DNA of 62,811 nucleotides, the filler included, from Sluysia triapertura (Eukaryota): the NCBI GenBank assembly GCA_046118255.1. It is 4 parts of 4 records of this genome, joined end to end, with 100 filler letters (N's around TTAATTAATTAA, not from the genome) between each part and the next. Parts side by side here need not be neighbours in the genome. Positions count along the whole stretch, not along the records: positions 1 to 13,081 come from JBJNIA010061093.1; 3 more parts are not named here. One strand, 5' to 3'. The position numbers and the translations under genes are program-made. Position 1 is the first letter of the stretch. Every line of letters starts with the position of its first letter. The notes beneath the pieces were generated by a model. That model was not told where the DNA came from, searched no databases, and saw nothing but the letters and a program-made list of their open reading frames with translations. This document shows, in pieces, positions 1-49,394 of this stretch.

Positions 1-691
1 TATTGTCATTATTGTTATATAATATGATTATCAAATAATAACTTTTATAATAAATTTTATATCAACATCAACTATGCGATTATTAACCACGTTGTTGTTA
101 ACATTATTATTTCTTTTATCCTTATTATCAATCTGTCTTCTTATCCTTCCATTTTTTTTCATTTTATATATATTTATATAAGTGTTAATCTGTAAAGTAT
201 GCATTTAATATCCCTATCTCCGCAGTTGCTTCCAAATAGGTATAATGATGTTCAACTTATCGTATTACAAAATCGAGAATTGCAAGCACCATATAGTACT
301 CGTAATGTAAACGTAAATGCAGAGCGATATACATTTTACAATGGCGACTATAAATAGTAAATCTTGACAACGTTGACCATCTGCATCCATTAAGAGGCAG
401 ATTATAAATATATAAAGAGTAGGAATGATTGGTTGTCCAATCGAAACGTAGAATGTGAAGTAGACTATATTAGCAAATGTGTGCCTGTTACCATAGAAAT
501 TTTAATGTTAGTGATTATATCATGTTAAACGGTGGCAGGCAATGAAGTGTTTAATGAAATTATGTCAAGATTGACAGAAACTAAATTAAAATTTGCCAGC
601 AACAAATAATACCAACGAACAACAATGATACTAATAATGATAATAAAAATGCCGATAATAATTATTATAATAAGGTACTTAAATGAAATAA

Positions 692-742
<51 letters not shown>
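692..742. repeat. (AAT)n microsatellite
   Basis: Seen directly. Confidence 0.95.
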
Positions 743-743
<1 letters not shown>

Positions 744-1489
744 TTAATATTAATATTAACATTAAATAAAATAAAATAATAAGTAATAAAATGAGAATAA
801 TAATAACAAAATAAAATTAATAATAAATAATAAAAATATACAATAGTTACATTTACATAAATCTTTCGTAATAAAATTTTTTTAAATAAAATTCTTTTAA
901 GATTTTGTTATTCTGAACTTTATATTCTTTCTATGTACTTTCATATATAAATAAAAGTCTTAAAGATGTTAAAGAAATTCCTTTTTGCTTCTGATGTTAT
1001 ATTGGTTTTAAAATGTTAATTTAATGTTTTCACTGATGCTAATGACTGAGTGTTAAAAGATTGTGAAATGTTTTTGGTTAATATTGAAATATATATTTGA
1101 TGACTTAAGATATAATTGTGGTTCTAATGTTGTGGGATAATGAATAAAATGTTTTAAATGAATTTTTAAATGTACATTGATGGTTTAATGAATGAAAGTA
1201 GAGTTTGGATGTTGAAAGATTGTGAATTTAAAATGCTGTTAAGTATGAAAAATGGTTTTAATGAATCTGAAAATAAAATATGAAAAGGTAAGATAATTTT
1301 TGAAAAGGTAACAATGTAAATGCTAATGAATGTAATAATGCAATTGAATTGATTATTTTGAATTTTTAAGTAGAGGTTGGCCACCACAATGTAAGTATTA
1401 TTATTAATTTCAATTTCTTTAGATATTTCTATTTTAATTTTTGTTGTTTGTTGCGTCACGTCTGGTTTTTTTGGATATATGTTGCGTCC

Positions 1490-1490
<1 letters not shown>

Positions 1491-1537
<47 letters not shown>
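1491..1537. repeat. (ATT)n microsatellite
   Basis: Seen directly. Confidence 0.95.
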
Positions 1538-1539
<2 letters not shown>

Positions 1540-2298
1540 AACGCAATTGTTAATCTTTTGATTTTAGTTATTTTTATTATTATTAAAACTGAAACGTATA
1601 ATAGCAATTTGTACTTGATTTTGAAATTTTTAAATTATTTAGTGGTTATTAATTTGATTTTAAAACATACTAGAGTTGGATAAATATTATTATTAAAATA
1701 AGAGAATTTGTGATAATTTATACTTGATCTAGGGAGTAATGAAATTATTGAGACTCTATTTAGTTAAATTAAATTAATATTTATTTATTGTTACTATTAA
1801 TTTCAACGGCGCAACATTATGAATTTATTGATTTATTTTATTTTCATTAAGATTGTATCAGTAAATTAAAATAAATTATTATAAAATTAAATAAACTTAT
1901 CAAGGTCATTCTCAGACTATATAAGCCATCATAAATTATAATAAACGCAGTCAAAAATTTTTAAGAATTTTAATTATTACAAAGTTTTGGAATCACCGTT
2001 AGGCAATTAAATCTACAATATTAGATAATCCAAGAAAAAAATTAAGAAAGTAAAAGGACCGTCAATATTTTGAAAATGATTATGTTTGCAAAGATTCTTT
2101 GGTTTCACCTAACCTATGATGCAAATAAGCCTAGAAGAGTTCGACCTAACAAAAACGACTTAAGTCTGGACGACGGCGGCCTGTTATGATTTACTGTGCA
2201 AAAGATATAAGCAAACAAAGGCTTAAGATAAGAATTGTTTTTAGATGATTTTAATTTAGTTAAATTATTAAAATCTATTGATAAATTTAATGATTTTG

Positions 2299-2670
2299 AG
2301 TTAGCCTTTTTACGGTCTAACTAATAAAATCAAATATTAAATTAGCCTGTTACGGTCTAATTATTTGAAAACCAAATGTTAATGTTATAATATTGAGCTA
2401 TCCTTATTACGGTATAGCGTTTTTTTACAATTTTAGTAAATAATTAAGAATAAATTTAAAATACACAGTTATATTATTACAATAAAAGAATTAGACTATA
2501 CAGAAGTAGTGGTTACTAATAATAATAATGATTTTATTTAGCTTAAATTCAATTGAATTTAGCTTTCAATATTTTAGAATTAAGTTAACTTATCCTTTTA
2601 CGGTATAAGTTTTGAAAAACTAAAAATTAATTTAAGTTAAATTTTGCTCCTCCCTTCTTACGGTGAGGAG
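2299..2670. other. Array of five covarying hairpins with invariant CC-(N2-3)TTAC-GG-T core (structured cis element)
   Basis: AGTTAG-CC-TTTTTAC-GG-T-CTAACT (2299-2322); AATTAG-CC-TGTTAC-GG-T-CTAATT (2340-2362); GCTAT-CC-TTATTAC-GG-T-ATAGC (2397-2418); AACTTAT-CC-TTTTAC-GG-T-ATAAGTT (2587-2611); CTCCTC-CC-TTCTTAC-GG-T-GAGGAG (2647-2670). Every stem pairs perfectly although the stem sequences differ. Confidence 0.9.
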
Positions 2671-3889
2671 AATAAAATCCTACTAAAAAATAATCTTACT
2701 AATTTCATGGATTTTCTTTGCTGGCTGAAGATTTTTCTGAACAATACTTTACCAAAAACAAATACTGGTTTTTAACCCACAAATTGTTGGTTTTTATATC
2801 CAATTTTTGTTTCTAGCTTCCATATTGTTCACACGTAATTTTATTGATTTAAATAAACAAAATTATCTTTTAAAACCAAAAATATTTTTTAATACTTAAA
2901 TTATTTAGATTAAAAATATCTTTTAATACTTTTAGATTATTTAATAATATTCTTTGTTTATTTCACATTTTTATAATATAATAATAATTTTATTTTTATA
3001 ATTTTTTATAATAATATCATAATAATTAGTTAATAAATAATAATATTAGTCAATTTATATAATTAATAATCACAAATTAGTTATTAAAAATCGCATTTAT
3101 AATTCTTCACAATATTCCAGTCAGTTTCTTCACAAAATATACAGATCAAATATAAAAGGTACCAATGTAATAACAATAATGATCTTTTAACAATTCAGTT
3201 ATTAATTGATTATTTTGAAATTTTAAATGTAAATTACCCAACTCTCTTTAAGGTGTTGGTACGAAACAATTTTAAGAATTTACGAATATTTTAATATTCC
3301 CAAAACTTAACATAAAAAATTACTTATTAAACATGGATCTTCGGAATTCAATCTTGTACTAAAATGTTTTCTAATTTTGTTCTTAAAATCTTCACTTGCT
3401 GCTGTTGTTATTCTTAATGTTTTTGCGTCTTGTTCTAAATTTTTCAATCTATTGATATTAAATTTATAAATCGCCATCTTTAACCTAAATAATTTATTTA
3501 ATTCCTTCTTGACCTAAATAATTTAATTATTTAATTTCTTAACCTAAAAATAAATTTAAATAAATTAGTAATTTAAAACAAAATTACTTTGTAATATTAA
3601 ATTGGTAATTTAAAACAAAATTATTTTTTTAATATTTCCTGATTTATTTTTATTTAATATTTTTTATTTTTTTGATGTTTATATTTTTAATATTTAATGT
3701 TTAATATATTTTAATATATTTTTTAATATTTAATATAATAAAAATAATATTAAAAATTTTATAATATTTACACAAAATTAACAAATATACATAAAACATA
3801 AAACATAAATCATAGAACGTAATTTCTGACATTGCTTTCCCTTTCGGGAAAATTCGTCCACGAATAAAAAAGTTAATTCAATTATTATT

Positions 3890-4780
3890 ATGGATCACAT
3901 TATTATCAATGTTATGTTAGTATTCTTCAAGGAGATAATCGTATGCAATAATACGTGGGTTTTGCTGTCGTCAGGGAATTTTAGTGGCGATCTACGTTGG
4001 ATGGTCGCCTTAGAAACTGTCGTCGGTGCTGATGTTGAAGTCAATGTTGGCGGGTCGCATGATTTTGAATTGATAATTGATGGGATGACGTTCCTAGAGA
4101 GACAGGAGAAGATGAAAAATAGGAAGAAGAACAAGGGATAAGTTTGTGTTTTTTAGGATGAGTAGTAGGTTTCGAGTCAGAATAAGTTTTCTTAAAAAGA
4201 GCAGGAGGGTCATTACACTTTGTGTAGTCGAGAAGGGTCACCAGTTCTGTGGCTAATTGGTGACAAGTTAACACTGGGCTAATAGGAAAGATTAGCCGCA
4301 ATGTTTGACATGCTCTTATAAGAGTCATACGTAGCGAATGGAATCAAATTTTGGTTCTCTAAATTGATTATTCCCCTTAGCAACCCGATAGGTATATTTA
4401 AAGATTTAATAACATATCTGGGGTCTAACGTTAGTAAAATTTCATTTCTCAAAATCCCTAATAATTATAGACGGATTTCATCGATCTCCTGAGCCAACCT
4501 AAGGTCGGTTTCCGTGACGGATTGAGCATTTCTTATGAAATTTGAATGCGACACCGAGGCTTGATGTGAGCCTCAGTGTGAAATTCACGACTGTAGGAGT
4601 ACAGGTCACACATATTAACTGAGTTTTATTTAGAAGGTCAGTGACATTGGAATGCCACAAACATGAGTCGATCCTCGTCATACGCAGGCAAAGGTGGTAA
4701 GTGCATTTGGCTCATATTATCCAAATCCCGCGCGAACGGAAGAAAAGAAGGGGAGAAAAGAGGAGCAGGAGGTAAGACAT
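3890..4780 (-). pseudogene. Degraded intronless secreted/membrane protein gene, probably mobile-element cargo
   Basis: GC-richer coding-like island. ATG at 4780 gives signal-peptide-like MSYLLLLFSPLLFF. Overlapping Cys-containing ORF fragments (4499-4681, 4041-4328, 3895-4134) are broken by stops and frameshifts, with a hydrophobic stretch near 4100-4140. Confidence 0.45.
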
Positions 4781-5279
4781 AAAGTAAAGCGATATGAATA
4801 GGAAATTCGAGAGCTTCACTGTTATATTACAGTCCCTATTTAAATTAGAAAGGTAGTGTTATTGTTATTTTAAGCGTCTCGCTCGCAGATGCTATATATA
4901 ACGTATTGAAATCGTCCGGTGCGATGGTAAACCCTTCAAAGAGATAAGGGAAAGTTCCGGCGACAAAGAAAAATATGGGTTGCCACATTATCAGTTAACT
5001 CGGACTTTAATATACAAGAATTGGGAAAAAATGTAAGAGCAGGCTTTTTAATGCAGTACATATCGAGGGAGGAGTAGAAAATTTGAAATTGATTGATGGT
5101 TTTGGCTTGGACCTTTTGCATTGATTTGGAACTAGGTAAAAATAATAGAATGAAAAGAAATATATACAAAAACCAAAATATAACAAAATAATAAGTAATT
5201 TTTTGTGTTTCAATGTACCTTAGTACTATAATAAGCGATAATAATTAGGAAATGTACTAGTGTTTTAAAAATGGGTTTT

Positions 5280-6040
5280 TACATAATTGTGCATTAGGGT
5301 TAGTAGCATAATTACGTTATTAGCAGTAATTCATTGATGTGGTTGATTACGTAGTAAAAACTTGATAGGTAAATAAATCGATAATTTATGTTACATTAAA
5401 TGGTACACAAATGGCTACATTAAGTTATCTAAGTATGTTACTTAATTGATCTGGTTTGTACATATTTTCGCATAAAGTATATTACTGAATCGATTTTGAA
5501 GTAATGTTGTTTGTGGCTTAATCGTTAATAAAATTGGAGTTAAAGCAGTTCTATTATATTTCGTATGAAAACTTTGCCATAATCATATCCGGTCTTAGTT
5601 TCATTTGATTAACATCAACTTAGATTTTCTAGACTTCTAATTCTAATATTTTTTGCTTACACAAATAAAATACATAAATTAACATGAATTCTTTCGCTTC
5701 TAGCTATTTATCTTTTAATTCTTTATCAACTGAATTATTTTGTAAAAATGCTTTATAATAGTGCTTTAGTTGTGTATATTTGTGTTCAGTTTCTAGCACA
5801 GCTTGTAATTTCTTTGTAACAGTTTCTTCAAAATTATTTATTATCTTCTATTGCAATTCTATTATCTTCTGAATAATGTGAAATCAAGCCAAATAAATGT
5901 GGTGGCAGTGTCGCTGACTTAAGCATCTTAGAAAAATTTATTTGTTCTAAATTTACAGATTTTGGATAATTAGGATTGGATTTAGTTAACATGTTTTTAC
6001 GCCAACCATGAAGTACCAGTTTCAAAAAAAACAGAAACAA
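5280..6040 (-). pseudogene. Degraded intronless ORF remnant with a coiled-coil-like middle
   Basis: ORF 5834-6040 continues in frame past its stop (FEETVTKKLQAVLETEHKYTQLKHYYKAFLQNNSVDKELKDK). No family recognised. Confidence 0.35.
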
Positions 6041-7759
6041 AATAAAAAGGTTGTGATAGGGGTTTTAGAATAGTTTAGATTGTCTTTATAGAAATTTTTA
6101 CTACCGTTTTACTTTGTTACTAAAGTATTATTTAAAGTTTGAGGGATTTTATATGTTGAGCTGTTTAAATAGTTATGTGATTGTGCACTTATTTAATGTT
6201 TAGTGTTATATATATATGTGGTATTTTTTGTGAGTGTGATGTTTTGTTTATTTTAAGTGAAAATATTATGTATTTACGAAAATGTACTATATTAAAAAAT
6301 AAATGTCTGTTAATAAAAGTGTAGAGAAGAGCAATTTATTGTAGTTTAGAGTTTCTATCGAATTATTCTGAAAAGAACATATTGTATTATAGATGCATAG
6401 AAGAATTTTATGACTTCTATTTCGATTTCGATTTCGATTTGATCTTTATATTTGCATTATTTAATGTTGGTTGTAACATGATAGAGTGCTCCAACAATAA
6501 TTATATTTTATATTCATTGATTGAAACAGACTCATCTAATTTATAGTATTTCGAAAATAATAGTATTACTTATTACTTAAGTGATATAACTTATAACTGA
6601 AATTACTTATTCTATTTTACATTATTTTATTTAATTATCACTATTTTATGTTTTATATTTATTATTTCAGCTTTTGCTAAAAGTATTGCATTCCTGATAA
6701 CTACAGATATGTATCGAAAAACCAATAGGTTTGTAATTATTTTTATTGAATTTGTTTTCTAATGATAAAATCTTAATATTTTGAGTTTTGAGATTTTTAC
6801 AATAGTTGCAACACTTGATTTAAATTCACAAAGGATATTATCCTCACACGATTTATATTTTATTGGATTATCAAAAATGTAAATAATAATGGTAGAAAAA
6901 GACAAATTTTTGAGAATTTATTAAAAAAGATATTGTACAACTTATTTTGCATTTGTTTATTCTAATCAATCGGCTACAATAATATCATGAAATACATTGA
7001 GTCCTAAATAGATCTTGGAAGTTCTGTCTAAATAACTGTTATAGACAACGCTATATGTCCTTATATCTTTTAGAGAGGATCTTTCTTTATGTTTTTATGT
7101 TTATCCTATGAATATTTAAAATGTAACACCAAAAATAGGAAATTATTTTCTATATTACACTGTTAACCATAGAAATAAAGATGATTAATCTTCCAAAAGT
7201 ACCGAATACTTCTAAATTGTTTTTCAGATAAGCAAACATCAACTCACGAAGAATAATTATTATTGCCATAAATTAAAGTATTGTATTGATGGTTCAAAGA
7301 CGTATAAGTAAGAATTTTGCAGTTATCGATTTGGTCGGTTACCTATTAAATGTATCTACCAATGCCTTTAATCAATTATAGTCTAAGCACAAGTTTTATA
7401 TTTTTATATTAATTTTACTTTTTAATAACTTATAAGATATCAATTATTCTAATTTTCTTGTACTACGTCCAATCCATCTGGGTTATGGTTGTATTATGGC
7501 GTATCTTACTACTATGAAATTTTACAACATTAATTAATACTATTAATCGCTCTCAGAAATAATAAACAAAAACTTAAATAATATTCTTGAAGGTAAGCGC
7601 GACAATATTGCTAGTATTATTTTTTAATCTACTTTTTGCAAATTAAAGGTTTCTTAACTTATGGGTTCGTTTACAGTTTACGGTTTACGTCTGAACGAGA
7701 ACGTAGCGGTAAGTGTGATTGCTTGATTTTCTTTTATAAATAATTATCCTAAAATTCTT

Positions 7760-9608
7760 ACTTTAATAACTAAAGTAAGGTTTTTAATTTGCAAATTAAC
7801 TGGATTTATGAGTAATTATTCAAATACACTTTCCAAGTTAATTAAATAACAAATAACACACAATTAAATGTATAACAAAATCTATAAAATATAAATTAAT
7901 TACACATCAAATAATTTCGTCAAATGTCAATTAGTATAATTAAATACAACTAAAAACAATACAATTCGGACGATTCGTCGAAAAAATATAATGCAATATT
8001 AAAATATTAGAGTTTTATGCTCTAATATTTGCTAAATATTTTAGAAAGATCGCGTGAAATAATAATTGATTTTAAGTGTAATTTAAGTCTTACGTGCGTA
8101 ATTCCAATGGGTTAAAGGAGACAAAAAACAATGAAAAAATAATTTATAATATGAGAATAGCTGGTAATGTATTAATGGATGGTACTTGTGAAAGAGGTTC
8201 AATAGATTATGAAGAAAAAATTTATCACAACGTAGAAGCTCAAGAAACGAATTAGTAAGTTTAAGATCTTTTAATGAATGTTCTGACTTAGAAAAAGGTA
8301 CAATGATGTCACGTCCATTATGTAATTGTTTTTTAAAAATAATTAAATTTAATTTCCGGATTTATGTATAAAATGAAGATGAACTAGCTGTAGAAGAGAT
8401 AGGTATAAAACAAATTTATAACGATAATTTAGATAAACCAGAAAGGAAAAGATTAAATGAAGTGGTAATTCCACAATTTTAATGGCAAAGAAAGAAGAAG
8501 ATTGATTGATATTTGCATCAAAAAAGTTAATAATAAGATGCGGACAAGAAATCAGAGAGATAAATTATCAAGGAATCTATTTATCTGAAAAACAATTATT
8601 CAAGCAAAGGAAGGCATAGACACAAAAAACTTAAAACAAAATACCTATTTTAATAATAAGATTGATTTTTATTACCACTTAGGATTAATGTCGTTAGAAA
8701 AAGTTTATCAGGCTATGATAATTAGGGATTGCCAACTAAATAAAGAAATACGTAGAACTAAATTAGCGGTAGCAATAACCAACCCAGACTTACTTCCGTT
8801 AGGAGTATTTCGTAGATTGATGGGTGAAGTTTTATATACTTACAAATGTAAAAAAAAGTGGAAGTACAATTCAGGCAAGAAAATGAATGTACTAATGACT
8901 GCCAGTAATACATAAAAATCAAAATACTTATTTAGAACCTGTGATAAGAATAATTATGCCAACTAATAAATTCAAACCGAAAACACTATACTGCTATAAT
9001 ATAATGGCACCGGAATATAAAAATGATGATTATCTTTGGATATCTTTGTCACATAGAAGTTAGGTTAAAACCCCAGTTTGATTGGTTTAACAGGTATAAA
9101 AACAAAATTAAAATTTTCCGCTACCAAAATTATTCCGAGATCAGAAATCTATTCTCTTGAAGATATACAATCAGTTTGGCATGAAATTTTATTTCCTATG
9201 AAGAGATCAAAAGTACTCAGCGATATAGTTAATAAAGCAATTGTAGAAAAAGATGGAAAATTAAATTTTGAAATATTATTAGGACCAGACCATTTTAAAA
9301 AGGCAGCGCATAATACTTTACAACAAATTTGGGGAAATTTTCTAGTAATAGTGCAAGCTTTTTCTGGATTGATAGGTATATATGTAATTGTAAAAGTTAT
9401 TGCTCTTTTAATATTATAAATATTTTCTGTAGTAGGTATTTATAAAATATTGGGATTTACGTGGAAATTAATAACAGGATGTTTCCCGTTTCTAGCTAAA
9501 TTTTTACTACATCATCATGCTCATGCTCAACTAAATGCTTTGAAAAAGAGAGAAAGCAGACTGAAGAAATACCATTTATTTATGGAGATTGGCAAAAGAC
9601 ACAATTAA
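7760..9608 (+). pseudogene. Endogenous chuvirus-like (Jingchuvirales-type, class III/gB-like) envelope glycoprotein, frameshifted
   Basis: Fragments are colinear with chuvirus G / BEL-Pao captured env: IAGNVLMDGTCERG..HNVEAQET; CGQEIRE; TYFNNKIDF; SLEKVYQAMIIRDCQLNKEIRRTKLAVAITNPD; LMGEVLYTYKCKK/VEVQFRQENECTND; YLEPVIRII; SEIYSLEDIQSVWHEILFPMKRSKVL; IWGNFLVIVQAFSGLIGIYVIVKVI (TM); GIYKILGFTWKLITG. Multiple stops and frameshifts. The 5' boundary is approximate. Confidence 0.85.
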
Positions 9609-9619
9609 GGTCAACATTA

Positions 9620-10450
9620 TAATATGTATTTGCTTGTCATGTATCTCTGATACTCATACTGCTACGATTGAAAACTATGATGGACATGGATAACTACTTG
9701 CCACGAAATATCACACATCGAATAACTATCACATCAAATCAAAAAGATATATACGCCATAATACAGATAAATAGAATTAATTTGATTAATCTTCAAATGT
9801 GGTGTTGTATAGTTAATTGGTGCCAAGATTAAGCAAACATGTTTTTATTGGATATTATTCTGTAATAATCAAATACCAATTATTTAATGCTACATTAACC
9901 ATAGAATGTGAATACAACCTTAAATATAACTCAAACTTCGTTCTGCTGAGAAATTATAGGATCAGAAACAAGCCATTCGTTGTTTTCCAGCAATTGTCGG
10001 ATACAATAGAATTCCCAATAGTCATTCACCACTACCTTGGTGATATTGTACGCATGGACAACCCGTTAAAGGATAATACACTAATAATAGCATATATACT
10101 ATACGATTACAGATTGGTGCATTACAGATTGGTAACACCAAAGGCAACAATTCGACCATATCACTTACCGAATAACAGACTAATATTCATCCAAATATGA
10201 AATGCACGATACTCAGGCACTTTTGAAAATGATACTAACATCGATTTAACCATAAAAAATATAGTTAAATATAACATCCTCGTAAGCAGTGAAACAATTT
10301 TATGTGTGCTTGTAAGAGTTCTCCAGAGATAACTGCACCTAATGAGACGGTCACTAATTACGTCAATGTTATAGTTAATAATTACGTTTTAATGATATTT
10401 CTTTTTACAACACTTGCTGTAATAGTCATCCCTTTATAAGGACTTAACAA
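9620..10450 (+). pseudogene. Degraded ORF immediately downstream of the glycoprotein (possible type I membrane protein)
   Basis: Begins within about 15 bp of the G stop, contains the 127-aa open stretch 9817-10200, and ends in hydrophobic YFFFTTLAVIVIP. No introns and no family recognised. Confidence 0.4.
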
Positions 10451-11208
10451 TAGGATCAAAATTGTGAACTGAAATTATTTGCATATCTGACCATATGTGG
10501 TGGTCATATGTAGTGATGTTAATGTTCACATTTATAAAAAGTTTGTAAAATACTGTACCCTTACTTAATTAGGTCATAATAATTTTAATTTAATAGTATT
10601 CTTAATTAAATTTATTAAATTATTTCTTATTTACTTAATATATTTTTATTTTTAGATAGTTAATAATTAATAATTAACAATTAATAATAGTTAACAATTA
10701 ATAATTATGAGTTACACAACCTGTTCAATTTGTTTCTGGTTCATTCGAAAATACTTTGCTAAAGCTATTCCTTGTCTTTACCGATTTTATTTCTCCTGTT
10801 TCTACCTTTTATTTGATACGTCTCTTTCTCCTTTACCATCATCTACTCTATGCAGAGCTACTATTCAGGAATTCAATATATTTTATAAAAGGTCTTTCGA
10901 AAAAAATTACGTCTTCATTATTGAATTCATTTCGGACACGTCAGAGAAACAACCTGGGGTTTGATATCATCTAGCCTATACGGAGTAAATATAAGAAAAA
11001 GCTTAGCAAACATGGTTTGGTGAGACCAGACCCTATTTTTATTTTGGGTCTTACGAAATCTCAAAAACGTAATCATCGTAGATGGCAACTTAAGCACTTC
11101 TATAAAATGACTCAACACCGAATAGTATTAATAATAAACCAATTAACCCTTTTTTGAAAAGGAAATAAGATTAAATATACTTAATATTAAAAAAAAAGAA
11201 TGCATACA

Positions 11209-11693
11209 TGTAACACTAAAAACTTACGATTTTGTACGAAATTGTACAAATTTTTATCTATTGTTCTTAATTTTAGCTCAATTCAAGCTCATATCTTACA
11301 GCAACAGAAAAACTTTTATGTCCAGGTAGAGATGTTTTGTCACAAAAGTATAATCCATACTTTCTTTTCTAACTCTGTAGAAACTACTAGCAATCTTAAA
11401 AGCGAACTAAATCTTAACCTCGCTACGCATTTTTTCATTGTTTCCTTTCTTTTGATGGGTTTTCACAAATACCAGATGATATTAACTCTGTTTATGTAGC
11501 TGTGACTAGATGAATTACCAAAGTTTAACTTTTCATAAAAGCTTGCATTTTATTACCAGGGCTCACAGGTTTTCTGCACTGCACGTGACGAATATCTATA
11601 AAAGTTGTAGTATTGTGATTGAAGCCAACGAGTTCCAACGAGTTCCAACGAGCTTAATTTTAAAGGTTTAAATTTATTTTTTTTTGTGTTACA
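11209..11693. mobile_element. LTR-like or TIR-bounded element (TGTAACAC...GTGTTACA)
   Basis: Perfect 8-bp terminal inverted repeats with TG...CA ends, about 485 bp long, with an internal (CCAACGAGTT)x3 at about 11625-11652. No target-site duplication seen. Confidence 0.5.
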
Positions 11694-11884
11694 TAATTCA
11701 ATGAAACAGATGATAATTAGTTATTTGATTTATTTCATTTCAAAAAAATGCTTTAATAAAATAAATTTTACTGTACACGTTAAAAATATCAAATAAAATA
11801 TATTAAAGAAAACTAATTATAAAATATCGAAAAAGTAATATCACTTGTCTTTATCATGTACTTATAAATAAAGTTTGTCAAATT

Positions 11885-12530
11885 AGTGACCATTAACGAG
11901 GCCAGAATTCTCACCACCTACACTTACTATGTTCGGAATGTCTTCATTACTTTTTGAATCATGGACTCGTTGCTGTTCTTGTTTTGGGTCAAAATAAACC
12001 CAGAGTTAGTTTAAATAGATGATTGAAGATTTAATGGAGTAGATAGAACATTAGACTTTGTTACTTCATTGCTCTTTCAGCTAAATAATCACAGCATTCA
12101 TCTCCAATTACTTTTACATAATTAGTGATGTTATAATCTGTATTTGGATTTAGAAAGACAATATTGACTTTTAGTTGTTTCCTCATTTTCCGTAGATTGC
12201 ATCCACATGTAGCAATTAAAATTGGATGTATTTCTTTAGGTATAAAAATTTGTTCGTCTTTGAGCTCGTAAACAATCAATCACTAAACATATCTCATCAC
12301 GTGCTTTTTTAGAATCTTCTTCGTAACCATGAATAATAACAGTAGATGAACCATTATATTTGCTTCTGAATGTTTCAATATTGGCACCACGTAAACTAAT
12401 CATCCCTTGTTAATTATACTTTGGCGTTCCAAAGACTTATAAGGGCTCGAGACCTTGTGGAAGCTTGAAATAGACTTGGAAAACCTTTGAAGGCATTAGA
12501 GTACCTTTAAGCTCATCTAACACCTTATTA
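11885..12530 (-). pseudogene. Intronless degraded tandem KH-domain fragment resembling the C-terminal KH repeats of vigilin/HDLBP
   Basis: PKYNYKG/MISLRGANIETFRSKYN..TVIIHGYEEDSKKARDEICLVIDCL, then a frameshift to EQIFIPKEIHPILIATCGCNLRKMRKQLKVNIVF..YVKVIG. This matches the vigilin pattern IIGRKGAVI..ITITGYEKNTEAARDAIL..VHARIIGARGKAIRKI..VDIRF. Confidence 0.7.
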
Positions 12531-13010
12531 ACCTTTAGATATTTTTGAAAACTCTATAAGCATATTATAGTGTTTAATATAAGTAATATTATAGTGTTTA
12601 ATATCTCTAAAATAATTGAGATATAAAATCATAGTTATTGGTATTAAAAGTAAATGTAGTAGAGTAATAATTAACATGAAGAAGTAGAAAAGAAATCAGA
12701 GAGGTGAAGGTGAAAACATCTAGAGCCTCCTGAACTCCTTATAAACTACTAAATAACTTTAGAACCTTAATAAAACATTTAAACATAAAATAAGATTAAG
12801 TCTAAAAATAGATTAATTAATTAAGAAAAAGGTAGGTTTTTGAATGCGGAATTCTATGTCAAATTTGAAACTGCGTATGCATTTGTTTTGAAAAGACCTT
12901 TCAAGGAAGATATGGTTTGACCGAGTTCATGCAAGGAAAGCCTTAATATTGAGCAAATTCATATTTTTATTATTTTTAATTATGGAATATTGAATTTTTT
13001 ATACTTAGAG

Positions 13011-13060
13011 CAGTGGTGTCAAACCTTTTTGCTTTACGGGCCGCCACTTTGACACCACTG
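13011..13060. mobile_element. 50-bp internally deleted hAT-like MITE
   Basis: 13-bp perfect TIRs CAGTGGTGTCAAA / TTTGACACCACTG. CAGTGG termini are typical of hAT-Charlie elements. Confidence 0.7.
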
Positions 13061-13081
13061 TATTAAGGTAATAAAATAAAT

Positions 13082-13181
13082 NNNNNNNNNNNNNNNNNNN
13101 NNNNNNNNNNNNNNNNNNNNNNNNNTTAATTAATTAANNNNNNNNNNNNNNNNNNNNNNNNNNNNNNNNNNNNNNNNNNNN
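13082..13181. other. Assembly gap with artificial TTAATTAATTAA linker (also at 32066-32165 and 46935-47034; plain N gap at 25582-25794)
   Basis: The same 44N+TTAATTAATTAA+44N, 100-bp structure occurs three times. Confidence 0.97.
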
Positions 13182-13396
13182 TAAGTTCTGAACCTATTAG
13201 TCGATCAAATATTCAAAAACTATTGAAGTTAAATGCAGCAAATTGCTTAATATTTTCAGTGTATTACTTACATATTGGAAGGTCACATCAGTTATTTTTA
13301 CCTAGCAAAGATTTAATTGAATTGTTAAGCATGCATCGTATTAAAACTCGTGACAAATTAATCAACTTTTGGTGATTTTGATTATTTTACATCTAG

Positions 13397-13752
13397 CTAA
13401 AAACCATGATGTGCGAGATGTTATTGAAGAATATTCGCAAGGAAATATCAATTTAATGATGCGTATCAAAGAGCTTCAGCGAACAATCGATCAATCTATT
13501 GGGAAACCTTACATTTACGGTTATGATTCAAGTTACGAAATTAATAAACAGCACAGTCAGGATAGTTCCAGAGTGAAAAATTGTCATGAAAAGCGAGTTC
13601 GTCATACAGTCCATGGTAGACTGAGTCAATTAGAATATAAATTGAATACCATAGAAACAAATTTAATTCAACTTCAACAGCAAACTATTAAAATTCATTC
13701 TGAAGTGGTGGAATTGAAAAAATTAACTACAATCAATTTTCAAAATACGTAA
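13397..13752 (+). CDS. KCNQ1: Terminal exon of KCNQ (Kv7, KCNQ1-like) potassium channel; helix C/D assembly domain
   Basis: [35 protein letters not shown] matches KCNQ1 [35 protein letters not shown], followed by a helix-D-like [17 protein letters not shown] coiled coil. Acceptor ttttacatctag at 13396; stop TAA at 13750-13752. Confidence 0.92.
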
Positions 13753-14025
13753 AAATAATCCATAAAAACAAATTTTATGATAATAAAAACGACACGTTGT
13801 TGCAAAACTTAATTGAAAAATTGTGCTTCCGTATCTTATAACTATTTATAATTTAACAATAAAAAGAAAAATTAATTTGTAAAATCATAAAAACAAATGC
13901 ATAAAAATTAATCACATTTAATAAACTAATCGATTAATTAAGGCTAATTTTGAAATTGTCATTAGCAATTGGATATTTACATGAAAATTAAAAATTTACT
14001 TTGTTGATCCAGAATTAATTAACTA

Positions 14026-14889
14026 ATGCTTAATTACCTATTATTAGCGTTGGCTTTATTAGCTGTTATTACCATTCGATATACAGATTCACTTAAGTGT
14101 CATCACTGTGAACGTTGCAACGATCCATTTACGTTATCAGATACTATATTAGATAACTGTAAAAGTTGTACTAAACTCATCACTAGAAGTAATTTCGGAC
14201 GTTATTGTTCTGTAAAAACATGCAATAAAATGTGGTTTATATTACTACTGCTTACAAGTTTCAATGAACGCCTATTTTCTAATACAAAATGTACAGTGGA
14301 CAATTTACACGAAACTCACTTTAGTAAGAATGCGTTTGAATTAACAAAGCATTGTTGTTTATTTTTAAATCCATGCTATTCTGCAGTTCATTTTTATATT
14401 ACTGATAATAGTGTAAAATGTGGAAGTAATTATAATGATAGACAAGTTAAATTTTCATTGCTCGATAAAAATAAACCAGTACAAAGTAATTTACCAATTA
14501 TTATGATAAAAGTTTTAATGAAAATTTGGTGTTACGTGTCATTTGAAAATGTTACCTATATATCCAGTTTTTATGTTTTAGAAATTAATACTGATGACAT
14601 CAAAAACTTATCTCTTATAAATTATCTGGTTATTTTATTTCCATTTCCATTATGTCGTTATATGAATATTATATTTTTGGTGTTAACAAATGTTGTCTAC
14701 TTATTAAATTTAATAATTGTTTCTTTGTTTTTAATCGTTTCAGGCATTAAGCCTATTTTTATAATAAAAAAAATAATGTGTTTTAATCCACTTAATTTAA
14801 TTGTAATTAATTTGTTAAAAATAATTTCTAAAATAAATAAAAATAGAATAAATTTAAAATTAAAAAATGTTTTGCCCTCCACACATTAA
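14026..14889 (+). CDS. Secreted/membrane Ly6/uPAR (three-finger)-like protein, intronless ORF
   Basis: Signal peptide, then SLKCHHCERCNDPF...NCKSCTK...CSVKTC...KC...HCCLFLNPCYS, which is LU-domain-like Cys spacing. 287 open codons in very AT-rich DNA; hydrophobic C-terminal third. Confidence 0.7.
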   Translation: MLNYLLLALALLAVITIRYTDSLKCHHCERCNDPFTLSDTILDNCKSCTKLITRSNFGRYCSVKTCNKMWFILLLLTSFNERLFSNTKCTVDNLHETHFSKNAFELTKHCCLFLNPCYSAVHFYITDNSVKCGSNYNDRQVKFSLLDKNKPVQSNLPIIMIKVLMKIWCYVSFENVTYISSFYVLEINTDDIKNLSLINYLVILFPFPLCRYMNIIFLVLTNVVYLLNLIIVSLFLIVSGIKPIFIIKKIMCFNPLNLIVINLLKIISKINKNRINLKLKNVLPSTH

Positions 14890-21630: not shown

Positions 21631-23832
21631 TGTCAGATCTGGATCTAGAATTAAATTAATAATAAAAAATAATATAAAAATTACATATAAATAATAATAA
21701 AAAAATTAATAATAATAGAATTTTTAAAATTAATAATATGATTATTGATTGTAATATTAATAATAGTGGAAATAACAATGATAATATTGATAGTAAACGT
21801 AATTAACAGATATATCCTTTTACGACAAGAAAGTATTAATAAAACAACATTATCATATATGCATAATATTTGTAAAATAATAATACATTTAACATAATAA
21901 TTTCTGTAGAATCCTTGAAATTTTTAGATATACAATTGATAAAAGTACATTTGTTATAACAGTACCTTTTATTCTATGTATATATTTTTCCGAAATATCA
22001 CTTTGATTCAAAATTATCTTACGAAATGTATTAATTAATTAAACGTTTGTCAGTTAATTAAAGAAAAATGAATCTAATGTGTCTTGATTGTGTGTTGTTT
22101 ACTGGGATAAGTGCAATTATAAAAGTGGTTTTTATTACTACTTTCACAAATTCAATAATTGGTAAAGCGAACAAAGAATGATATTTTATATCTAAAGACA
22201 TTCGAGTTTCTGAAAAATTACAATTAATTTTGTTTTGTTTAAACTTAATTATATTGAATTTAATATTTTGGGAGATACTTGTGTAGTGGTTCACCTAATA
22301 ATTCAAAGTTTTATATCACATTGTCCATCCACATAAAACAAAAATTCATCACTTAAACAATTGATACATATTAAGTAATCAGAATATGTTAAATGCATTC
22401 AACACAATACTTTAAGCTCTTTATGCCATAACATAAATTCTTAAATAATTCACTCCATTTAAAAACAATGAAACATATTTTATTCTCACATGTTCAGCTT
22501 TTAGATTTTTATATTTTTCTTTCAATTCCCTCATTCTAAACATTAGGCAAATAACAATTGTTGATAGTGACAATAATTAGTCTCATACTAATAATAATAT
22601 TATTATTCTATTGTTTTATTATCATCATTCTTTTTATTATATTTATTTGATTTTTATTACCTAATTATTTTCGGTCTATTTTCTTCGATTTTGAATTTCA
22701 AAGGTATCGCCATAAGTAATATTGCTAAGACCAAGAAAAGAGTAAAATAATGCTTTGCATCCATGATAAAAAGTTCGTAAAATGAGAACTACAGCTACAT
22801 TTAAATTACCTAGAACTTTAAAATCACGACGAAACCCAAAACATGAAAAGAGTAACACAACCGGAGATAATAAATTAGATCAATTTCACATTGTCCGTAA
22901 ACCTTTAACGACTGAATCACCCATGAAAGTTATCCCAATTTAGTAATATTTATGTTCATAATGTTAATTTTGTAACTACAATTTTGTGTGTGCATAATAA
23001 ATCAAAGGATATTTATATTATTTTTAATCAAAGTTAATGCAAGTAACGGTCCTTAAGACCATTCGATATAATTTATTATGTTTAAATCGTAAATATATAT
23101 TAGTAATATTTGCGTTATTTTCTTTGTCAATAATGTAAAAGTAAAATTTCAGATAAAAGTAGTGTTAAGTTATATTCCCAGAAGACAAAAGTTACGTTTC
23201 TATGAACACTATGATTCTCGCGATTTAAAATGTCGAGCATTTATACGAACTTATAAATTTCTACCTTTATTATCAGTAACAAATCAATTGCATGAATATT
23301 ATTTCAAGTCATTATTACTATTTATTCCTATAAACACAAATTTATACATTCCAAATTTACATTCACATGATAAACATCTTGCAGAATTAGATTATAAATT
23401 ATGTACAAAATTTTCTATTTTGGCAAATGGCAGTAATGTATATTTTTCTGATTCAGTAACTTCTTCTATGAACAAGTTCCTAATCATTTTTTTACACGCA
23501 AACTACGAAAATTACCCAATTACGTCTATCTAAAACCTGTATATCCACACTCCAAACTATATCAAATAGAATTAATATCTATTTTATTATCAAAATTCAT
23601 CATAATCAAACATTTGTAAATTACAAAATTTATATAATAACTATTCATTTAATATACAAAAACTTGCATCATCCTTGCTTAATATATTTTTCCAAACTTT
23701 TGTATTATTAGTGCTGTGTAAAGTTAATTGTTAATTAACTATTATTTTAACATTTTTTGATTTAGTAATTATTTTTGATAATTAATAAATTGTAATTTTG
23801 TGATATCGATAATATTATTTCAGTTAGATCTC
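21631..23832. mobile_element. Intronic degraded mobile-element fragment with ORF remnants
   Basis: Starts TGTCAGATCT and ends AGATCTCA. Contains intronless ORF remnants (e.g. 23162-23533) separated by (ATT)-rich linkers, as in 1-10500. Boundaries are tentative. Confidence 0.3.
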
Positions 23833-31784: not shown

Positions 31785-33558
31785 GTTCGTTTTTTTGAAA
31801 TTAATTCAATTTACCGACTGTTTGACATTGAAGATGTATTAATTAAATTTCGTCTGTAAATTTATCCTTTGTGAAAGTAGAAATTTATCTTTATACCAAA
31901 TTTTATTTTTCACAATGTAATCGAAATTAATTAGAAATTCACATTTCTTTATAAATTTTGATAAATAAATCTTGAATAAAAATTTTTTGGATAAAGTTTT
32001 CATTCATCGGTATTTGTTATTGTAGTATGTTGCATTCGATACAAAACTATTCATACATGGTGGAANNNNNNNNNNNNNNNNNNNNNNNNNNNNNNNNNNN
32101 NNNNNNNNNTTAATTAATTAANNNNNNNNNNNNNNNNNNNNNNNNNNNNNNNNNNNNNNNNNNNNGTATTTGCAATTTCTTTTTATTTTCTTAAGGTAAT
32201 TTTAAAATTTTTAATTCAATTTTTAGCTGCAATTACATGATTCATTATTTCGATATCAATTTCTTTCATACTCATCTTAAATTTTGTTATTGTTTTAGTA
32301 TTAATTTGAAAGTAAACGTGAAAATTTGAATGGTTCTGAAGAAATTTTGATTTGTTAGATATGATCCCAAAAATATTATTTAGAAGATAATTCAGAAATT
32401 GTATTTCATCATACTACTCATGAGTTACTTGCATAAAACTTACGAAATTTAACTGATTACAAAAACAAACGATTAAAATATCAGTCTTTGGATCATAAAT
32501 GAATGATTTACAAATTGCCAATTTTTTAACTTACTCATTCACAGCTTTTTTAATATCTTTTTCAATATTGGAAAAATTAAAATAACTGGTTGCTTAGAAA
32601 TCAATAATTTTGATTGACTTTTAATATAAGTTACAGACCTTTATGTCTTATTTAGAGATTTTCATTGAAATAAGCAACTAATAAAATGCTCATCGAGTGA
32701 GAGAAATAGAGCTAAAAGATAATTAAGAAATGGTTAGAAATTGGATTCTTTTTGTGTTGAATTTATACAGGTTTATTTTAGTGTTGTTGAACCTTGAAGA
32801 ATTATTGGATGTAAATTGTAAACTCCTTTCGTCAAGTGATTTATAGAGGAAGAACTGATCATATTTTAGGCTGAAAATGTTAGAAAGTAGAGTAGTTTTT
32901 GACATATACATATACTATTTGATCTTTGCAATAAACATAGTCACATAATCATACACTAGCTCATTTGTAGTTTGATTTGTCATAAATTAAAGAAAAAACG
33001 CCTTTGAAAGGCAGTTAATTAAACGTTGACAAAATATTAAAACAATTATTAGTCTATTTTTAGAATATTAAATAGTTCACTTTCTCAAAAAGAAAAAAGC
33101 TCAAATTTAATAATATCAGCTTAAAACCAATTAGAGATAGTTCACTACTTATATATAGTATTAATTTTCCAATCAAATATTTCCTGTCTATAATATGAAA
33201 TTACAATATAATTTCAATCTAAGTAAGATAAGAAGATGATACTTATCATATAATTTGTATTTTTTCTATACTTTGCTCTATCGTAGTTTGCATTTTGAAT
33301 TTGAAATTAGATACTGTCAATTTTGTTTGGTAGTTTTATATATTTAAATAATATTTTTTCTTATTTTTGTTTTAATTTTTACTATGTAAATATAAAAAAT
33401 GAAAGGACAAAATTTTTGTTTTGTTTTTTACTTAGTATTTAATAAGTATAAATGAAATATTAGTTGGGATATAGATAGGGCCGGTTACGAGTCGATTTAG
33501 CTTAATCAGATCCACGTCCGTATCCGAAGTGCAATCAATTAGTAAAATTACGTAATTA

Positions 33559-42176: not shown

Positions 42177-43304
42177 GTTCGCTTTCTAGTTTGGAACATT
42201 TATAAAAATTACATAACAGAAAAGGGTTCGCCTGCGTAACACGATTTATTTTAGAAGGACGCGTTCGCAGGATTTAGTCAACGTAAAAGTTTATCAAAGA
42301 GGGTCACTAAACTTCGCTAATATCTTCAAGAAAACTAGAAATTATTCTTCGCACACTGTTGATAAGGATCACTTACTAATTAAATCTTTCTACGTGTTTA
42401 AATCTACTCTGAAATTCTTCGAGATTATTTTAAATCTTTATCGTTTTATATTATGATGTAATAAACGTAATTTATCTTATGTAATTTATCACTTTATATT
42501 ACAATCGTTTATCCGCAATTATGCACTTAATCTATTGTTGTAGATTACACTTTCTTTTCTACAAAAAATCTCAAAAAGACAAGTGTTTAGTAATTAAAAT
42601 ATAAAATATAATGCTTACAATATATAATTTAAATAAAGATAAATTAATTATAATTAATAAATAATTGCAATAAGGATTTTAATGTCAAGTTTGACCCAGG
42701 AGTAATTCTTGGGTTGAAAAGTTATGATTTTAAGTAATATTTTTAGGCAATAGATCTATGCCTATTATGAATAAGCTTACTTATCAATTGATAATTATGT
42801 CTTCTGGTTTTCCCAAAAAATGGATCTGTATCTGGAGGAGCTTGGAACGATTTTTTCGCCAACAATTAAATGCATATAGTGATTCCGACTCGTAGTTTTC
42901 GAAAGTAAATATATATATTTAATCGACTCTCCAACTAGTTTCTTCGTCGCTCGTTTTTTGAGAATTCTCTAATTATAGCGAGTTAATTATTGTGCGTAAA
43001 GATTTACTTGATAATTCCTTTTATAAGTAAGCTTATTCAAATGACTTTTGACCAATAATTAAATGATTAATTCTTTTAATTTTAATCCAAATATTTATGT
43101 TACCAAGATTATTTTAGTTCATAAAAATTTTTCAGTTAATTACAGAATTTTAAATATTTATGTTTCAAAGGTTATAATTTATTTTCGCTTAATTATAAAA
43201 TGATATAATTTTAATTTTATTTCAGTAAAACTTTTTAATATTTAGTAAAACTTTTTTTAATATTATAAAAATTTTTTTTTAATATTTACAAAATTTTAGT
43301 ATTT

Positions 43305-43500
43305 ACAATTTGTATGTCATCATTTACAACCAATATTTACATATGGTATTGAAGACCATATGATTCGATTACACTTGAAACATCATTTATGTATATTATA
43401 AACAACAATGGACCAAGTAATGATCCCTGAGGAACTCCATGCTTTACATGTACCTCATTTGGCTTCTTATTATTCAATAAAACGTATTGTCTCTTTTACT
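43305..43500 (-). mobile_element. Non-LTR (CR1/L2-group) reverse transcriptase fragment
   Basis: [38 protein letters not shown], then a frameshifted degenerate YADD-like VNDDIQI. Confidence 0.88.
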
Positions 43501-46500: not shown

Positions 46501-48349
46501 AGAATTGATCCACGATAAACAACGATTGAAATATATAAAATTAATATTAAGAAAGACATTTAATAATAATAATAATCTGTTAATTCTCGTTGATTACCGA
46601 AATAAAGATAATAAAAAACTATTGTTTTTCGATTCGTTATATTATTGGAAATAATTATGAATTACTTGGAAAATGACTATTTGGTTCAACCTAAAAATTC
46701 AAGATTTTGAAATGTTCGTTATATTATAACATTTTTATTGAGTTATGAAATTAAATTAAATTAATTAACAAATGTACTTTAATATTTTAACAGATAAAAC
46801 CTTGTGTAAAGGCTTATTTCTTCGTATTTCTCATTATTTAATCTTGATTTAAATATTTTATATTGTTGGGGTAAAAGGCCTAAAAAGTGCCAAGTAGTAT
46901 AATTGAATATATTGAAAATGAAAAAGTTAGACGGNNNNNNNNNNNNNNNNNNNNNNNNNNNNNNNNNNNNNNNNNNNNTTAATTAATTAANNNNNNNNNN
47001 NNNNNNNNNNNNNNNNNNNNNNNNNNNNNNNNNNATACCTTATCTTAGTTTTTTAATAACGCTCTACTTATCATATTATTCCAAGTTTTGACCCTTATAT
47101 CAACCCTTATCCTTCACTAATCCCAACATGTAGATATAAACATTATTTTACTTTAATATAAAGATAAGCACAAATACCTAACTTTTAATACAAGAAATAG
47201 TTAGACCTGTTTAGAAGTAAGTACCTCAGACGATTATTCACAAATCCATACAAGGAAAACTTTAAGCAAATTCAAATTTAATTAATTTTATAAACCAAAA
47301 CATTACTATATCTATATTTAGAATAATATAATGAGAAGAAACCAAATATAAGTTTAAGAGTTGTTGTGTCTTTGATTTTATGTTACATTGTTTGTTATTA
47401 AATTTAACGTAAATTAAATTATGAACGTTCTTTGAGATATTTATTGCTGTAATTAAACTTAATTTTAAAAATTCTAATTTAATTTCTTTTTTTAACAATT
47501 TTACAGAATAAAGAGATGTATATATATTTATATATATGTACATAAAAATTTGACAATTTTTAATAATTTTTAGATTGTGTAATTACATCATTTATATATA
47601 TATATATATATATAAATGATCTAATTACACAATCTAAAAAATATTAAAAATTGTCAAATTTTGGATCATATTAATTACACCATCAACGTTTAGACATATT
47701 ATGATTCTTCTCAATTGCGGTTTCCTTAAATAAAAAGAACAAAAATCATATGTTAGTTTATAATAAAAATTTAAAATTACTTTAAATCCTGGTTCATTAA
47801 AATGAATGTAAAATATGATTTTGTTCAAGGCTTGCGTTTGAATTTTGCTGATTTGTAGGTTACGATTGATCATGTTGTTTTGTAAAGACGTGAGCAGACT
47901 ATTCAAGCGTTCCTTGAACTATCATAGCTCATCTCCAAAACATTATGAGAATAGTGGCATCAAACTTGATAGATGTCCCGAATTTGTCTACTCGGGATGG
48001 ACATTGTGTATATGAACATTTAGACTTGAATTGATGGTATTAGACTTAACATATTAGCTTTCACGGTATGTTGACTCGGCAGTTGTATTATGTGGGTATT
48101 TGACTTCGTTCCCTTTAATCATATTCTTTTATGATAGTAGGTATTGTGCAGATAAATTTTGTTGAAACATAACTGATGATAAACTAAAACGAAGATTTTT
48201 AAAAACACGATTAAAGATGAATTCTATTATATCAACTTTATCAATAGCATGATAACAACGATACGATTCTTTGTAATCGCTGAATTGTATATTTGGCATG
48301 ATTTGAATATATTTTACATCATTAAATTTTAGTTTAAAGTTAATATCTT

Positions 48350-48860: not shown

Positions 48861-49291
48861 ATATAAAATACAGATCTTTAGTGTAATACTCAGGTGGTTC
48901 GGACATCATTGAATGTTAATTTTCAATAAAAATTTTTGATTCTTTTAAATAAATACTAATTTTTAATATTTTTATTAGTAAATAATTATCTAATTTTATT
49001 TTAATTAATTTTTAATGATAACAATTGTCGTCAGAAGAGTTTTTATCAAAAAATGATTGGACGGCCATATGACGAACGGTGACACATCTGATTAATTTAT
49101 GTTGGGTGCATTTCTTAATCTAAAAACCTAACCTATAGCAAAATAATTAATTATTCTGAGTCCATTTACAGTATACGACTCACTAATGGCGTACCTGTAA
49201 AATTACGTGAAAACAATTATCAAAATTAATCGTACAAAAATATTCTTTGCCTTAGCTTAACGGTAATGGGCAAAAACGTCGTTTTGACTTG

Positions 49292-49394
49292 GGTATTCCA
49301 TAAGATAGCGTTGGTCTTAATTAGTTTTTAATTGACTTATTAACAATAAATAACTTAAAAACTAATTAAGACCAACGCTAGCATATGGAATATC
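49292..49394. repeat. Short palindromic MITE-like element
   Basis: Perfect 25-bp inverted repeat TAGCGTTGGTCTTAATTAGTTTTTA (from 49306) / TAAAAACTAATTAAGACCAACGCTA (to 49380), extended by TATTCCATA/TATGGAATA. Confidence 0.8.

Follow-up and report, generated by a model that had tools for sequence, protein, structure and literature searches.

We analyzed a 62,811-nucleotide (nt) stretch of DNA from Sluysia triapertura (GCA_046118255.1), called here the window, whose first part, positions 1 to 13,081 (JBJNIA010061093.1), carries a block of broken, virus-like genes: a fusion glycoprotein gene (G), a gene with an inverted paralogue, tandem KH domains, and an array of five hairpins. A sequence-only reading had drawn this block at 200 to 11,200 and taken it for the accessory region of a giant Burro-like Ty3/gypsy element. 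A block does exist there but was drawn too short, as it spans at least 199 to about 12,500, with a paralogue at 11,269 to 11,501 and the KH domains beyond. The AT-rich linkers described between remnants were seen, together with (AAT)n tracts, whereas the single divergence point placed at about 6050 to 6700 was replaced by at least three changes of gene direction. The openness of coding stretches was ranked by a break-count test, given below as the number of shuffles as open out of 100 per region. The regions were picked by eye, which makes the figures optimistic, and the test is insensitive (the KH stretch, proven by Pfam, scored 20/100), so that it ranks regions and does not prove them. The principal features are as follows.

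2300 to 2321, 2341 to 2361, 2397 to 2418, 2589 to 2609, and 2648 to 2669, minus strand favored by folding: five hairpins within 370 bases
3890 to 5130, minus strand: broken homologue of protein P0001 (phmmer, tblastn), with an N-terminal domain without family match and a DEDDh-like C-terminal domain without the motif I acids; 4/100 shuffles
8050 to 9608, plus strand: G, a broken chuvirus/gB-type (class III) fusion glycoprotein gene with a C-terminal membrane anchor (PF24664; hydrophobic stretch at 9336); 0/100 shuffles
9620 to 10450, plus strand: broken gene resembling that of a type I membrane glycoprotein (sequons, C-terminal hydrophobic stretch); 1/100 shuffles
10488 to 10518, no strand: short inverted repeat, then TGTAG at 10,509; the supposed start of a long terminal repeat (LTR), not an LTR boundary on present evidence
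10710 to 11150, plus strand: nearly open coding stretch, its first frame like a degenerate RING finger; 0/100 shuffles, single stop on read-through
11200 to 11650, plus strand: inverted paralogue of the N-terminal part of the gene at 5130 to 3890 (tblastx); 1/100 shuffles for openness
11880 to 12530, minus strand: intronless, frameshifted tandem KH domains of the vigilin type (Pfam KH_1 and KH_Vigilin; vigilin among weak PDB matches)

The window has a GC content of 23 to 27% and is stitched from contigs at three identical 100-base joins (13082 to 13181, 32066 to 32165, and 46935 to 47034), each made of 44 N's, a 12-base core with stops in six frames, and another 44 N's; a further run of N's lies at 25,582. 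Past 13,200 there are ordinary host gene exons (KCNQ, a kinase, myotubularin, and a Ras/Roc-type domain), which mark the host as an AT-rich, intron-bearing animal. Because of the stitching, the block may have a true neighbor other than the KCNQ exon at 13,354, and since the first part is cut by the window edge on the left and by a linker on the right, neither end of an element need be visible. Pfam was run on nearly all six frames of 1 to 13,080 (620 to 900 left out) and on all 92 stop-free frames of at least 55 amino acids (aa) past 13,200. Two bulk measures did not separate block from host DNA, namely, windows with a period-3 signal above 2.5 (14 of 112 versus 49 of 497) and the density of hydrophobic segments (3.1 versus 2.9 per kb). 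The latter gives no general support for membrane proteins in the block. A codon model put 19% of windows above the host 95th percentile, a partly circular figure, as the model was trained on the block's own anchored pieces. No tRNA was found, Rfam gave no match in 900 to 13,081, including to hammerhead ribozymes, and scans of viral contigs and metagenomes for related loci came back empty. One sequencing run, probably the source, was listed as containing the DNA (share, 0.89), and no RNA data set was; neither point is taken as evidence.

Genes of the block

Positions 8001 to 9650 matched the Pfam family PF24664 (Monjiviricetes fusion) with an E value of 5.5e-27 and 94.5 bits, against a cutoff of 27 (single frames, X at stops). 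Three pieces of G in alternating frames match PF24664 positions 295 to 385, 397 to 445, and 462 to 611 in that order; they therefore represent a single gene, broken by frameshifts and stops, which ends at its own stop near 9608. The score above the curated cutoff and the colinearity of the pieces bear out the earlier call of an envelope (env) fusion gene. No match to PF24664 positions 1 to 290 was found in G, and the stretch from about 8050 to about 8600 is provisionally assigned to its N-terminal part by openness and by motifs that we take to be those of chuvirus glycoproteins. Word-seeded protein searches found no relative among 5723 candidates or among 677 longer ones, so that the nearest kin must be distant, and a PDB sequence search with G gave no match. 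Within the AT-rich membrane-anchor region of G, 9406 to 9460 resembles 43255 to 43306 (55 bases, 80% match, E value of 1.5e-4); this match is probably compositional.

The gene immediately downstream, at 9620 to 10450, a rightward remnant of the sequence-only reading, is more open than chance. To judge from its sequons and hydrophobic stretch, it likely encoded a type I membrane protein, and a match to Pfam V-set_CD47 (E value of 0.069) gives a weak Ig-like hint. Farther on, the RING-like frame keeps 5 of the 8 ligand positions of what we take to be the RING consensus and is the sole match of the cysteine pattern in the six frames of the window. The codon model prefers this frame, which has no Pfam or PDB match. 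Two plus-strand frames are open together over about 250 bases here, at 10710 to 10961. On the opposite strand, the KH stretch (12,390 to 12,100) matched Pfam KH_1 above its cutoff (E value of 8.6e-6) and KH_Vigilin with an E value of 7.9e-4. The KH pieces are only 32 nt apart, leaving no intron there, as after capture through RNA.

On the left side of the block, a phmmer search of 1.84 billion proteins with one minus-strand frame of 3250 to 6099 returned a single match, P0001 (E value of 4.2e-7), an intact, unnamed 365-aa protein that is alone in its cluster (n = 1). A word-seeded search for relatives of P0001 found only P0001 itself (1 of 1482). By tblastn, pieces of P0001 align at 5079 to 4888 and 4539 to 4306. 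Thus, the leftward remnant previously drawn at 3890 to 4780 is part of a longer gene that starts near 5130. Extensions of the match to 4312 to 4190 and across 4960 to 4700 were not significant, and the Ser/Thr/Pro-rich end near 4200 to 3890 may be a tail or a separate small open reading frame (ORF).

The C-terminal part of P0001 resembles a catalytically dead DEDDh exonuclease, a tentative likeness on which three weak leads agree, with no significant family match. First, its neighbors in a protein language model (Atlas) were arenavirus nucleoprotein (0.93) and DEDDh_C and RNase_T (0.90 each). Second, the only NCBIfam match was NF005906 (E value of 0.076). Third, PDB entry 2p1j was the top match of a small profile (E value of 0.1). 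P0001 had no Pfam match and no PDB match by plain sequence search, and the AlphaFold models of P0001 and of its C-terminal part (pLDDT of 30 and 37.5) were of unusable quality, and Foldseek gave nothing. At the place aligned by eye with what we take to be DEDDh motif I, the acidic residues are absent from both P0001 and the window gene, which indicates that the loss likely predates decay; the piece holding motif I stood at 6 of 2000 shuffles only.

The arenavirus match bears on the possibility that a large RNA virus, with genes on either strand, left the block as its DNA fossil, in a loosely arenavirus-like layout of glycoprotein, nucleoprotein-like exonuclease gene, RING protein, and intergenic hairpins. 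The Monjiviricetes type of G and the RING-like frame would also suit such a virus. However, the 0.93 match, best of the language-model matches, has only 141 of 256 features in common with the query, and the scores of cellular DEDDh families come close to it. No RNA-dependent RNA polymerase or nucleoprotein family matched in the frames scanned, and RNA virus genomes are not known to have long spacers rich in AT, inverted duplicates of a gene, or vigilin-like captures. We consider this origin very improbable.

The inverted paralogue of the P0001-like gene, at 11,269 to 11,501, was found by tblastx as three colinear pieces (E value of 5e-9), with scores of 100 and 62 that were reached in 0 of 300 shuffles each. 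The pair lies about 6 kb apart and brackets G and the supposed LTR, which ties the left and right halves of the block together. The block could instead be a graveyard in which fragments without relation to each other are nested (a lone env, a retrocopy of vigilin, and pieces of several elements), for example a region like a PIWI-interacting RNA cluster, that never moved as a unit. Such a region would account for the lack of any colinear relative in our searches and for the several remnants unverified in the break-count test, and solo chuvirus-type glycoproteins are described as common in arthropod genomes in the available text of PMC7642597. It does not account for an inverted pair within the block or for the similar, light decay across the anchored pieces (0 to 2 stops each), and a graveyard should show transposase or reverse transcriptase (RT) fragments, of which none was recognizable. 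We consider a graveyard quite improbable. Because of the paralogue pair, the similar decay, and the absence of transposase or RT scraps, the block is probably one decayed virus-like element.

The hairpin array

The array noted earlier held up well: the window has five copies, compared to a mean of 0.07 in 30 control sequences of window length, with a hairpin pattern that was defined after the copies had been seen. On the minus strand, each hairpin consists of a variable 5- to 7-bp stem, a bulged A, two C-G pairs, and the loop GUAA(N)NA. Folding z scores were −3.2 to −4.5 on this strand versus −1.7 to −3.0 on the plus strand. The stem sequences differ, yet 25 of 25 positions next to the bulge pair, with 2 to 4 pair types per position. 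Structure is kept and stem sequence is not, which speaks for a signal in single-stranded form. By itself, the hexamer TTACGG shows no enrichment (13 versus 11.9 in the window); the signal is the structure. When two mismatches were allowed, no damaged copy appeared in the array and one weak site appeared at 3259. The 190-base gap between hairpins 3 and 4 contains a perfect 18-bp palindrome (2537 to 2562). An exact search of metagenomes for the hairpin found none. A looser pattern hit at least 120 loci in viral contigs; among the matches listed, 13 had one structured copy and none had two, and these hits were dismissed as chance.

The hairpins are better preserved than the genes, which is what a cis-acting RNA signal would predict. 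The anchored coding pieces contain 5 stops in 573 codons, from which a decay of 5 to 7% per site was estimated (range, 2 to 17%). At the point estimate, the probability of finding 100 untouched hairpin positions is 0.0006 to 0.0045, rising to 0.17 at the low bound of decay. This suggests, without proving it, that selection on the array continued once the genes were broken. The MS2 operator, the L-A virus packaging site, and arrays of iron-responsive elements likewise have a single bulged base below a conserved loop, a variable lower stem, and repeated copies. The likeness of the block hairpins to these is an analogy of shape only, and the loop sequence differs. As a sharply defined short structure that outlasted the neighboring genes, the array is the most testable part of the block and a candidate for a cis signal in packaging or transport. 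For invertebrate retroelements, this step is, to our knowledge, poorly defined.

Nature of the element

What kind of element this was is less clear than that it was one. Our tentative assignment, made with just under even confidence, is to the accessory arm of a giant LTR retroelement with an env gene, perhaps a defective copy that moved in trans; gag-pol and the real ends of the element would lie outside the contig. In making it we take the parts, their order, and their breaks as read from the DNA and infer the unity of the element, the LTR class, and every function. In the element RNA, the five bulged-A hairpins would form a repeated site for protein binding in packaging or export, with the minus strand favored, and gag-pol supplied from elsewhere would copy this RNA. 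Particles would gain entry into new cells through the class III glycoprotein. The host would be the target of the accessory genes, which would be expressed from separate short transcription units on either strand: the dead DEDDh domain and the KH repeats might bind RNA, the RING-like protein might serve as a ubiquitin ligase, and the Ig-like protein might sit on the surface. In a defective copy that went on moving with trans help, only the cis signals would be selected, so that genes would decay while hairpins stayed perfect.

Several lines of evidence are consistent with this assignment. First, gB/chuvirus-type env genes are carried by Ty3/gypsy elements across animals and are the sole type in Platyhelminthes, according to the available part of PMC13524379, and chuvirus-type env also occurs in BEL/Pao elements such as Anakin in the accessible texts of PMC7642597, PMC10084718, and PMC12440569. 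Second, LTR elements and Terminons are known to carry additional ORFs for DEDD-type exonucleases (PMC5408684, available text), and flatworms have giant LTR elements whose cargo modulates the host (PMC6431247, available text). Third, the intronless vigilin piece and the covarying hairpin array point to an RNA stage. Finally, host-type microsatellites and a 50-bp miniature element with terminal inverted repeats (TIRs) share the contig, which fits an integrated copy. Of the earlier accessory-region claim, the gene-dense, intronless, virus-like block, the env-type gene, the membrane-protein-like frames, and the hairpin array stood; the LTR and the Burro label did not.

The LTR-like segment had been placed from about 10,514. 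The sequence TGTAGTGATG begins at 10,509, only 8 of the 15 bases before it are purines, no second copy of the segment exists in the window, and coding remnants follow it. The sole purine-tract-like site of the contig lies elsewhere. A very long LTR that holds genes is conceivable, with nothing in its favor. The hairpin at 10,488 to 10,506 was also considered as the 3′ end of a Helitron and dropped, as its spacing and terminal motif do not fit what we take to be Helitron features.

Other points also weigh against an LTR retroelement. Neither the first 13 kb or so nor the remainder of the window gave a match to gag, protease, RT, RNase H, or integrase, in agreement with the earlier statement that gag and pol are lacking, and the candidate at 10,509 has neither an LTR partner nor a purine tract. 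G does not lie between gag and pol, unlike in the flatworm gB-env elements described in the available text of PMC13524379. The protein, viral-contig, and metagenome collections searched held no relative of G or of the hairpin array, and colinearity and copy number have a single decayed copy to go by. Several remnants were not above chance in the break-count test, and the putative DEDDh and RING assignments come from weak, convergent leads.

In addition, the gene directions change at least three times, a layout that suits Polintons or DNA viruses no less well; Polintons accumulate ORFs regardless of orientation in the available text of PMC6431247. The block may then be part of an integrated Polinton/Maverick-like element or of a large DNA virus, either of which would have acquired its class III fusogen and host-modulating genes by capture. 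Replication would have been as DNA, with the hairpins acting as signals in mRNA or single-stranded DNA. Intronless ORFs in both directions with AT-rich spacers, which were seen but are not family specific, suit this origin. DNA viruses typically show gene duplication and have RING-like and Ig-like membrane genes. In nematode Mavericks, a gB-like fusogen occurs along with cargo, as stated in the accessible text of bioRxiv 10.1101/2022.07.12.499685. However, no polymerase B, integrase, ATPase, capsid, or adenain-type protease matched in about 13 kb, and 13 kb without a core gene leaves little room in a Polinton of 15 to 25 kb. There is also no long inverted repeat in 1 to 14,000 and no relative among viral contigs. 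We regard a Polinton or DNA virus as somewhat unlikely.

Within the LTR retroelement assignment, the Burro label does not hold, as G is of the PF24664 type and lies among unrelated frames, and no BIR, MATH, BCL2, or ankyrin domain matched in Pfam (decayed copies could be missed). In the available text of PMC6431247, the env of Burro/GYPSM1 is of the F type and lies in frame inside a 4,873-aa gag-pol polyprotein; the accessible parts of PMC11410931, PMC13238120, and PMC8532177 add nothing on Burro layout. Compared by description, the block and Burro/GYPSM1, which may work alike, share very large size, an env gene, and cargo that could act on host ubiquitin and defense systems. They differ in that Burro has BIR, MATH, BCL2, and ankyrin domains, whereas the cargo of the block is separate ORFs.

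Other known systems share single traits with the block, as far as the available text of each source goes. The gB/chuvirus-env Ty3/gypsy elements of Chary and Hayashi (PMC13524379) have the same env class, the sole type for the elements of Platyhelminthes, Nematoda, and Bryozoa, but are compact GAG-ENV-POL elements, whereas G has no gag or pol neighbor and stands amid accessory genes on both strands. Anakin, a BEL/Pao element, likewise places a chuvirus-type glycoprotein in a host genome; the block lacks BEL/Pao domains and LTRs, and such cargo is not described for Anakin in the accessible part of PMC7642597. Nematode Mavericks with MFUS-1 (bioRxiv 10.1101/2022.07.12.499685) combine a class III fusogen and cargo in a virus-like transposon. 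No Maverick core gene or TIR was seen in the block, and the likeness is at the level of fusogen class only. Vesta and Juno LTR elements and Terminons of bdelloid rotifers (PMC5408684) carry DEDD-family exonuclease and membrane-protein ORFs as cargo; their exonucleases are DEDDy with intact catalytic motifs, while that of the block is putatively DEDDh-like, and both homologues lack the motif I acids.

The literature searched, which was mostly open full text, without repeat databases or supplements, contained no element that has this gene set or this hairpin. The supplements of PMC13524379, according to its accessible text, list flatworm gB-env elements, and closer relatives of G may be among them. 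If the block is one element, its gene set and layout, in which a class III fusogen stands by itself among a dozen separate accessory genes encoded on both strands, are absent from that literature, and it would extend the range of sizes and cargo known for invertebrate mobile elements with an envelope gene. Should the pieces be unrelated, an ordinary env fossil and an interesting hairpin motif remain. A bolder and, in our view, unlikely reading is that the block is the fossil of large enveloped viruses, or virus-like elements, of invertebrates whose lineage is undescribed. These would have used a chuvirus-type fusogen together with antisilencing tools, namely, a duplicated family of dead exonucleases, captured KH repeats of vigilin, and a RING ligase; five operator-like bulged-A hairpins would have selected the genome RNA, and the intact P0001 would mean that the lineage is alive elsewhere. 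The parts are real and their combination is odd, and a single decayed copy in the window does not fix the element class.

Other remnants and features of the window

The block contains further remnants for which the evidence was weaker or mixed.

199 to 600, plus strand, not firmly: ORF remnant; 3/100 shuffles, with the opposite strand about as open
1000 to 1489, minus strand: ORF remnant with a 107-aa open frame at 1166 to 1489
3307 to 3477, minus strand: 56-codon ORF (MAIYKFNINRL); 11/100 shuffles and no informative family match
5280 to 6040, minus strand: possible ORF remnant; 9/100 shuffles, weak, and no family match
6700 to 7560, plus strand: possible hydrophobic ORF remnant; steady period-3 signal of about 2 and no family match

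The remnant at 199 to 600 had no Pfam, NCBIfam, or PHROG match, and all PHROG matches obtained were weak (E value of 0.015 or worse). Of the leftward frames proposed before, that at 1166 to 1459 was more open than chance (1/100 shuffles). In the remnant at 1000 to 1489, 67 nt resemble 3154 to 3226 (77% identity; blastn E value of 1.2e-5), a possible second paralogue pair; the protein comparison was not significant (17/300 shuffles). The 56-codon frame exists at 3477 to 3307 but is not clearly above chance. A 29-bp tandem repeat of about three copies (3461 to 3563), which may be a promoter element, overlaps its start codon. The proposed remnant at 5280 to 6040 is weakly open only, and those at 6700 to 7560 (60/100) and 2700 to 2860 (30/100) were not above chance; given the insensitivity of the test, all three are unverified rather than refuted. 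Between the latter and the left end, 1900 to 2330 gave 72/100 shuffles as open.

Near the right end of the contig, the 50-bp miniature element (13011 to 13060) has perfect 13-bp TIRs without a matching target duplication. Its terminal heptamer recurs at 50,108 (plus strand) and 52,044 (minus strand) and may bound a longer relative. Past the join, a 288-aa open frame (14023 to 14889) with a signal-peptide-like start, a cysteine-rich part, and no Pfam match probably represents exons of a small secreted-protein gene, read through an intron. An N-terminal fragment of ribosomal protein L23a (22770 to 22940; Pfam E value of 1.5e-6) lies between same-strand kinase exons at 20,713 and 26,205 and is either a nested gene or an intronic retrocopy. 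Finally, a 118-bp near-perfect palindrome (47545 to 47662) and a pair of inverted repeat fragments about 8 kb apart (49111 to 49939 and 57610 to 58375) are ordinary nonautonomous repeats.

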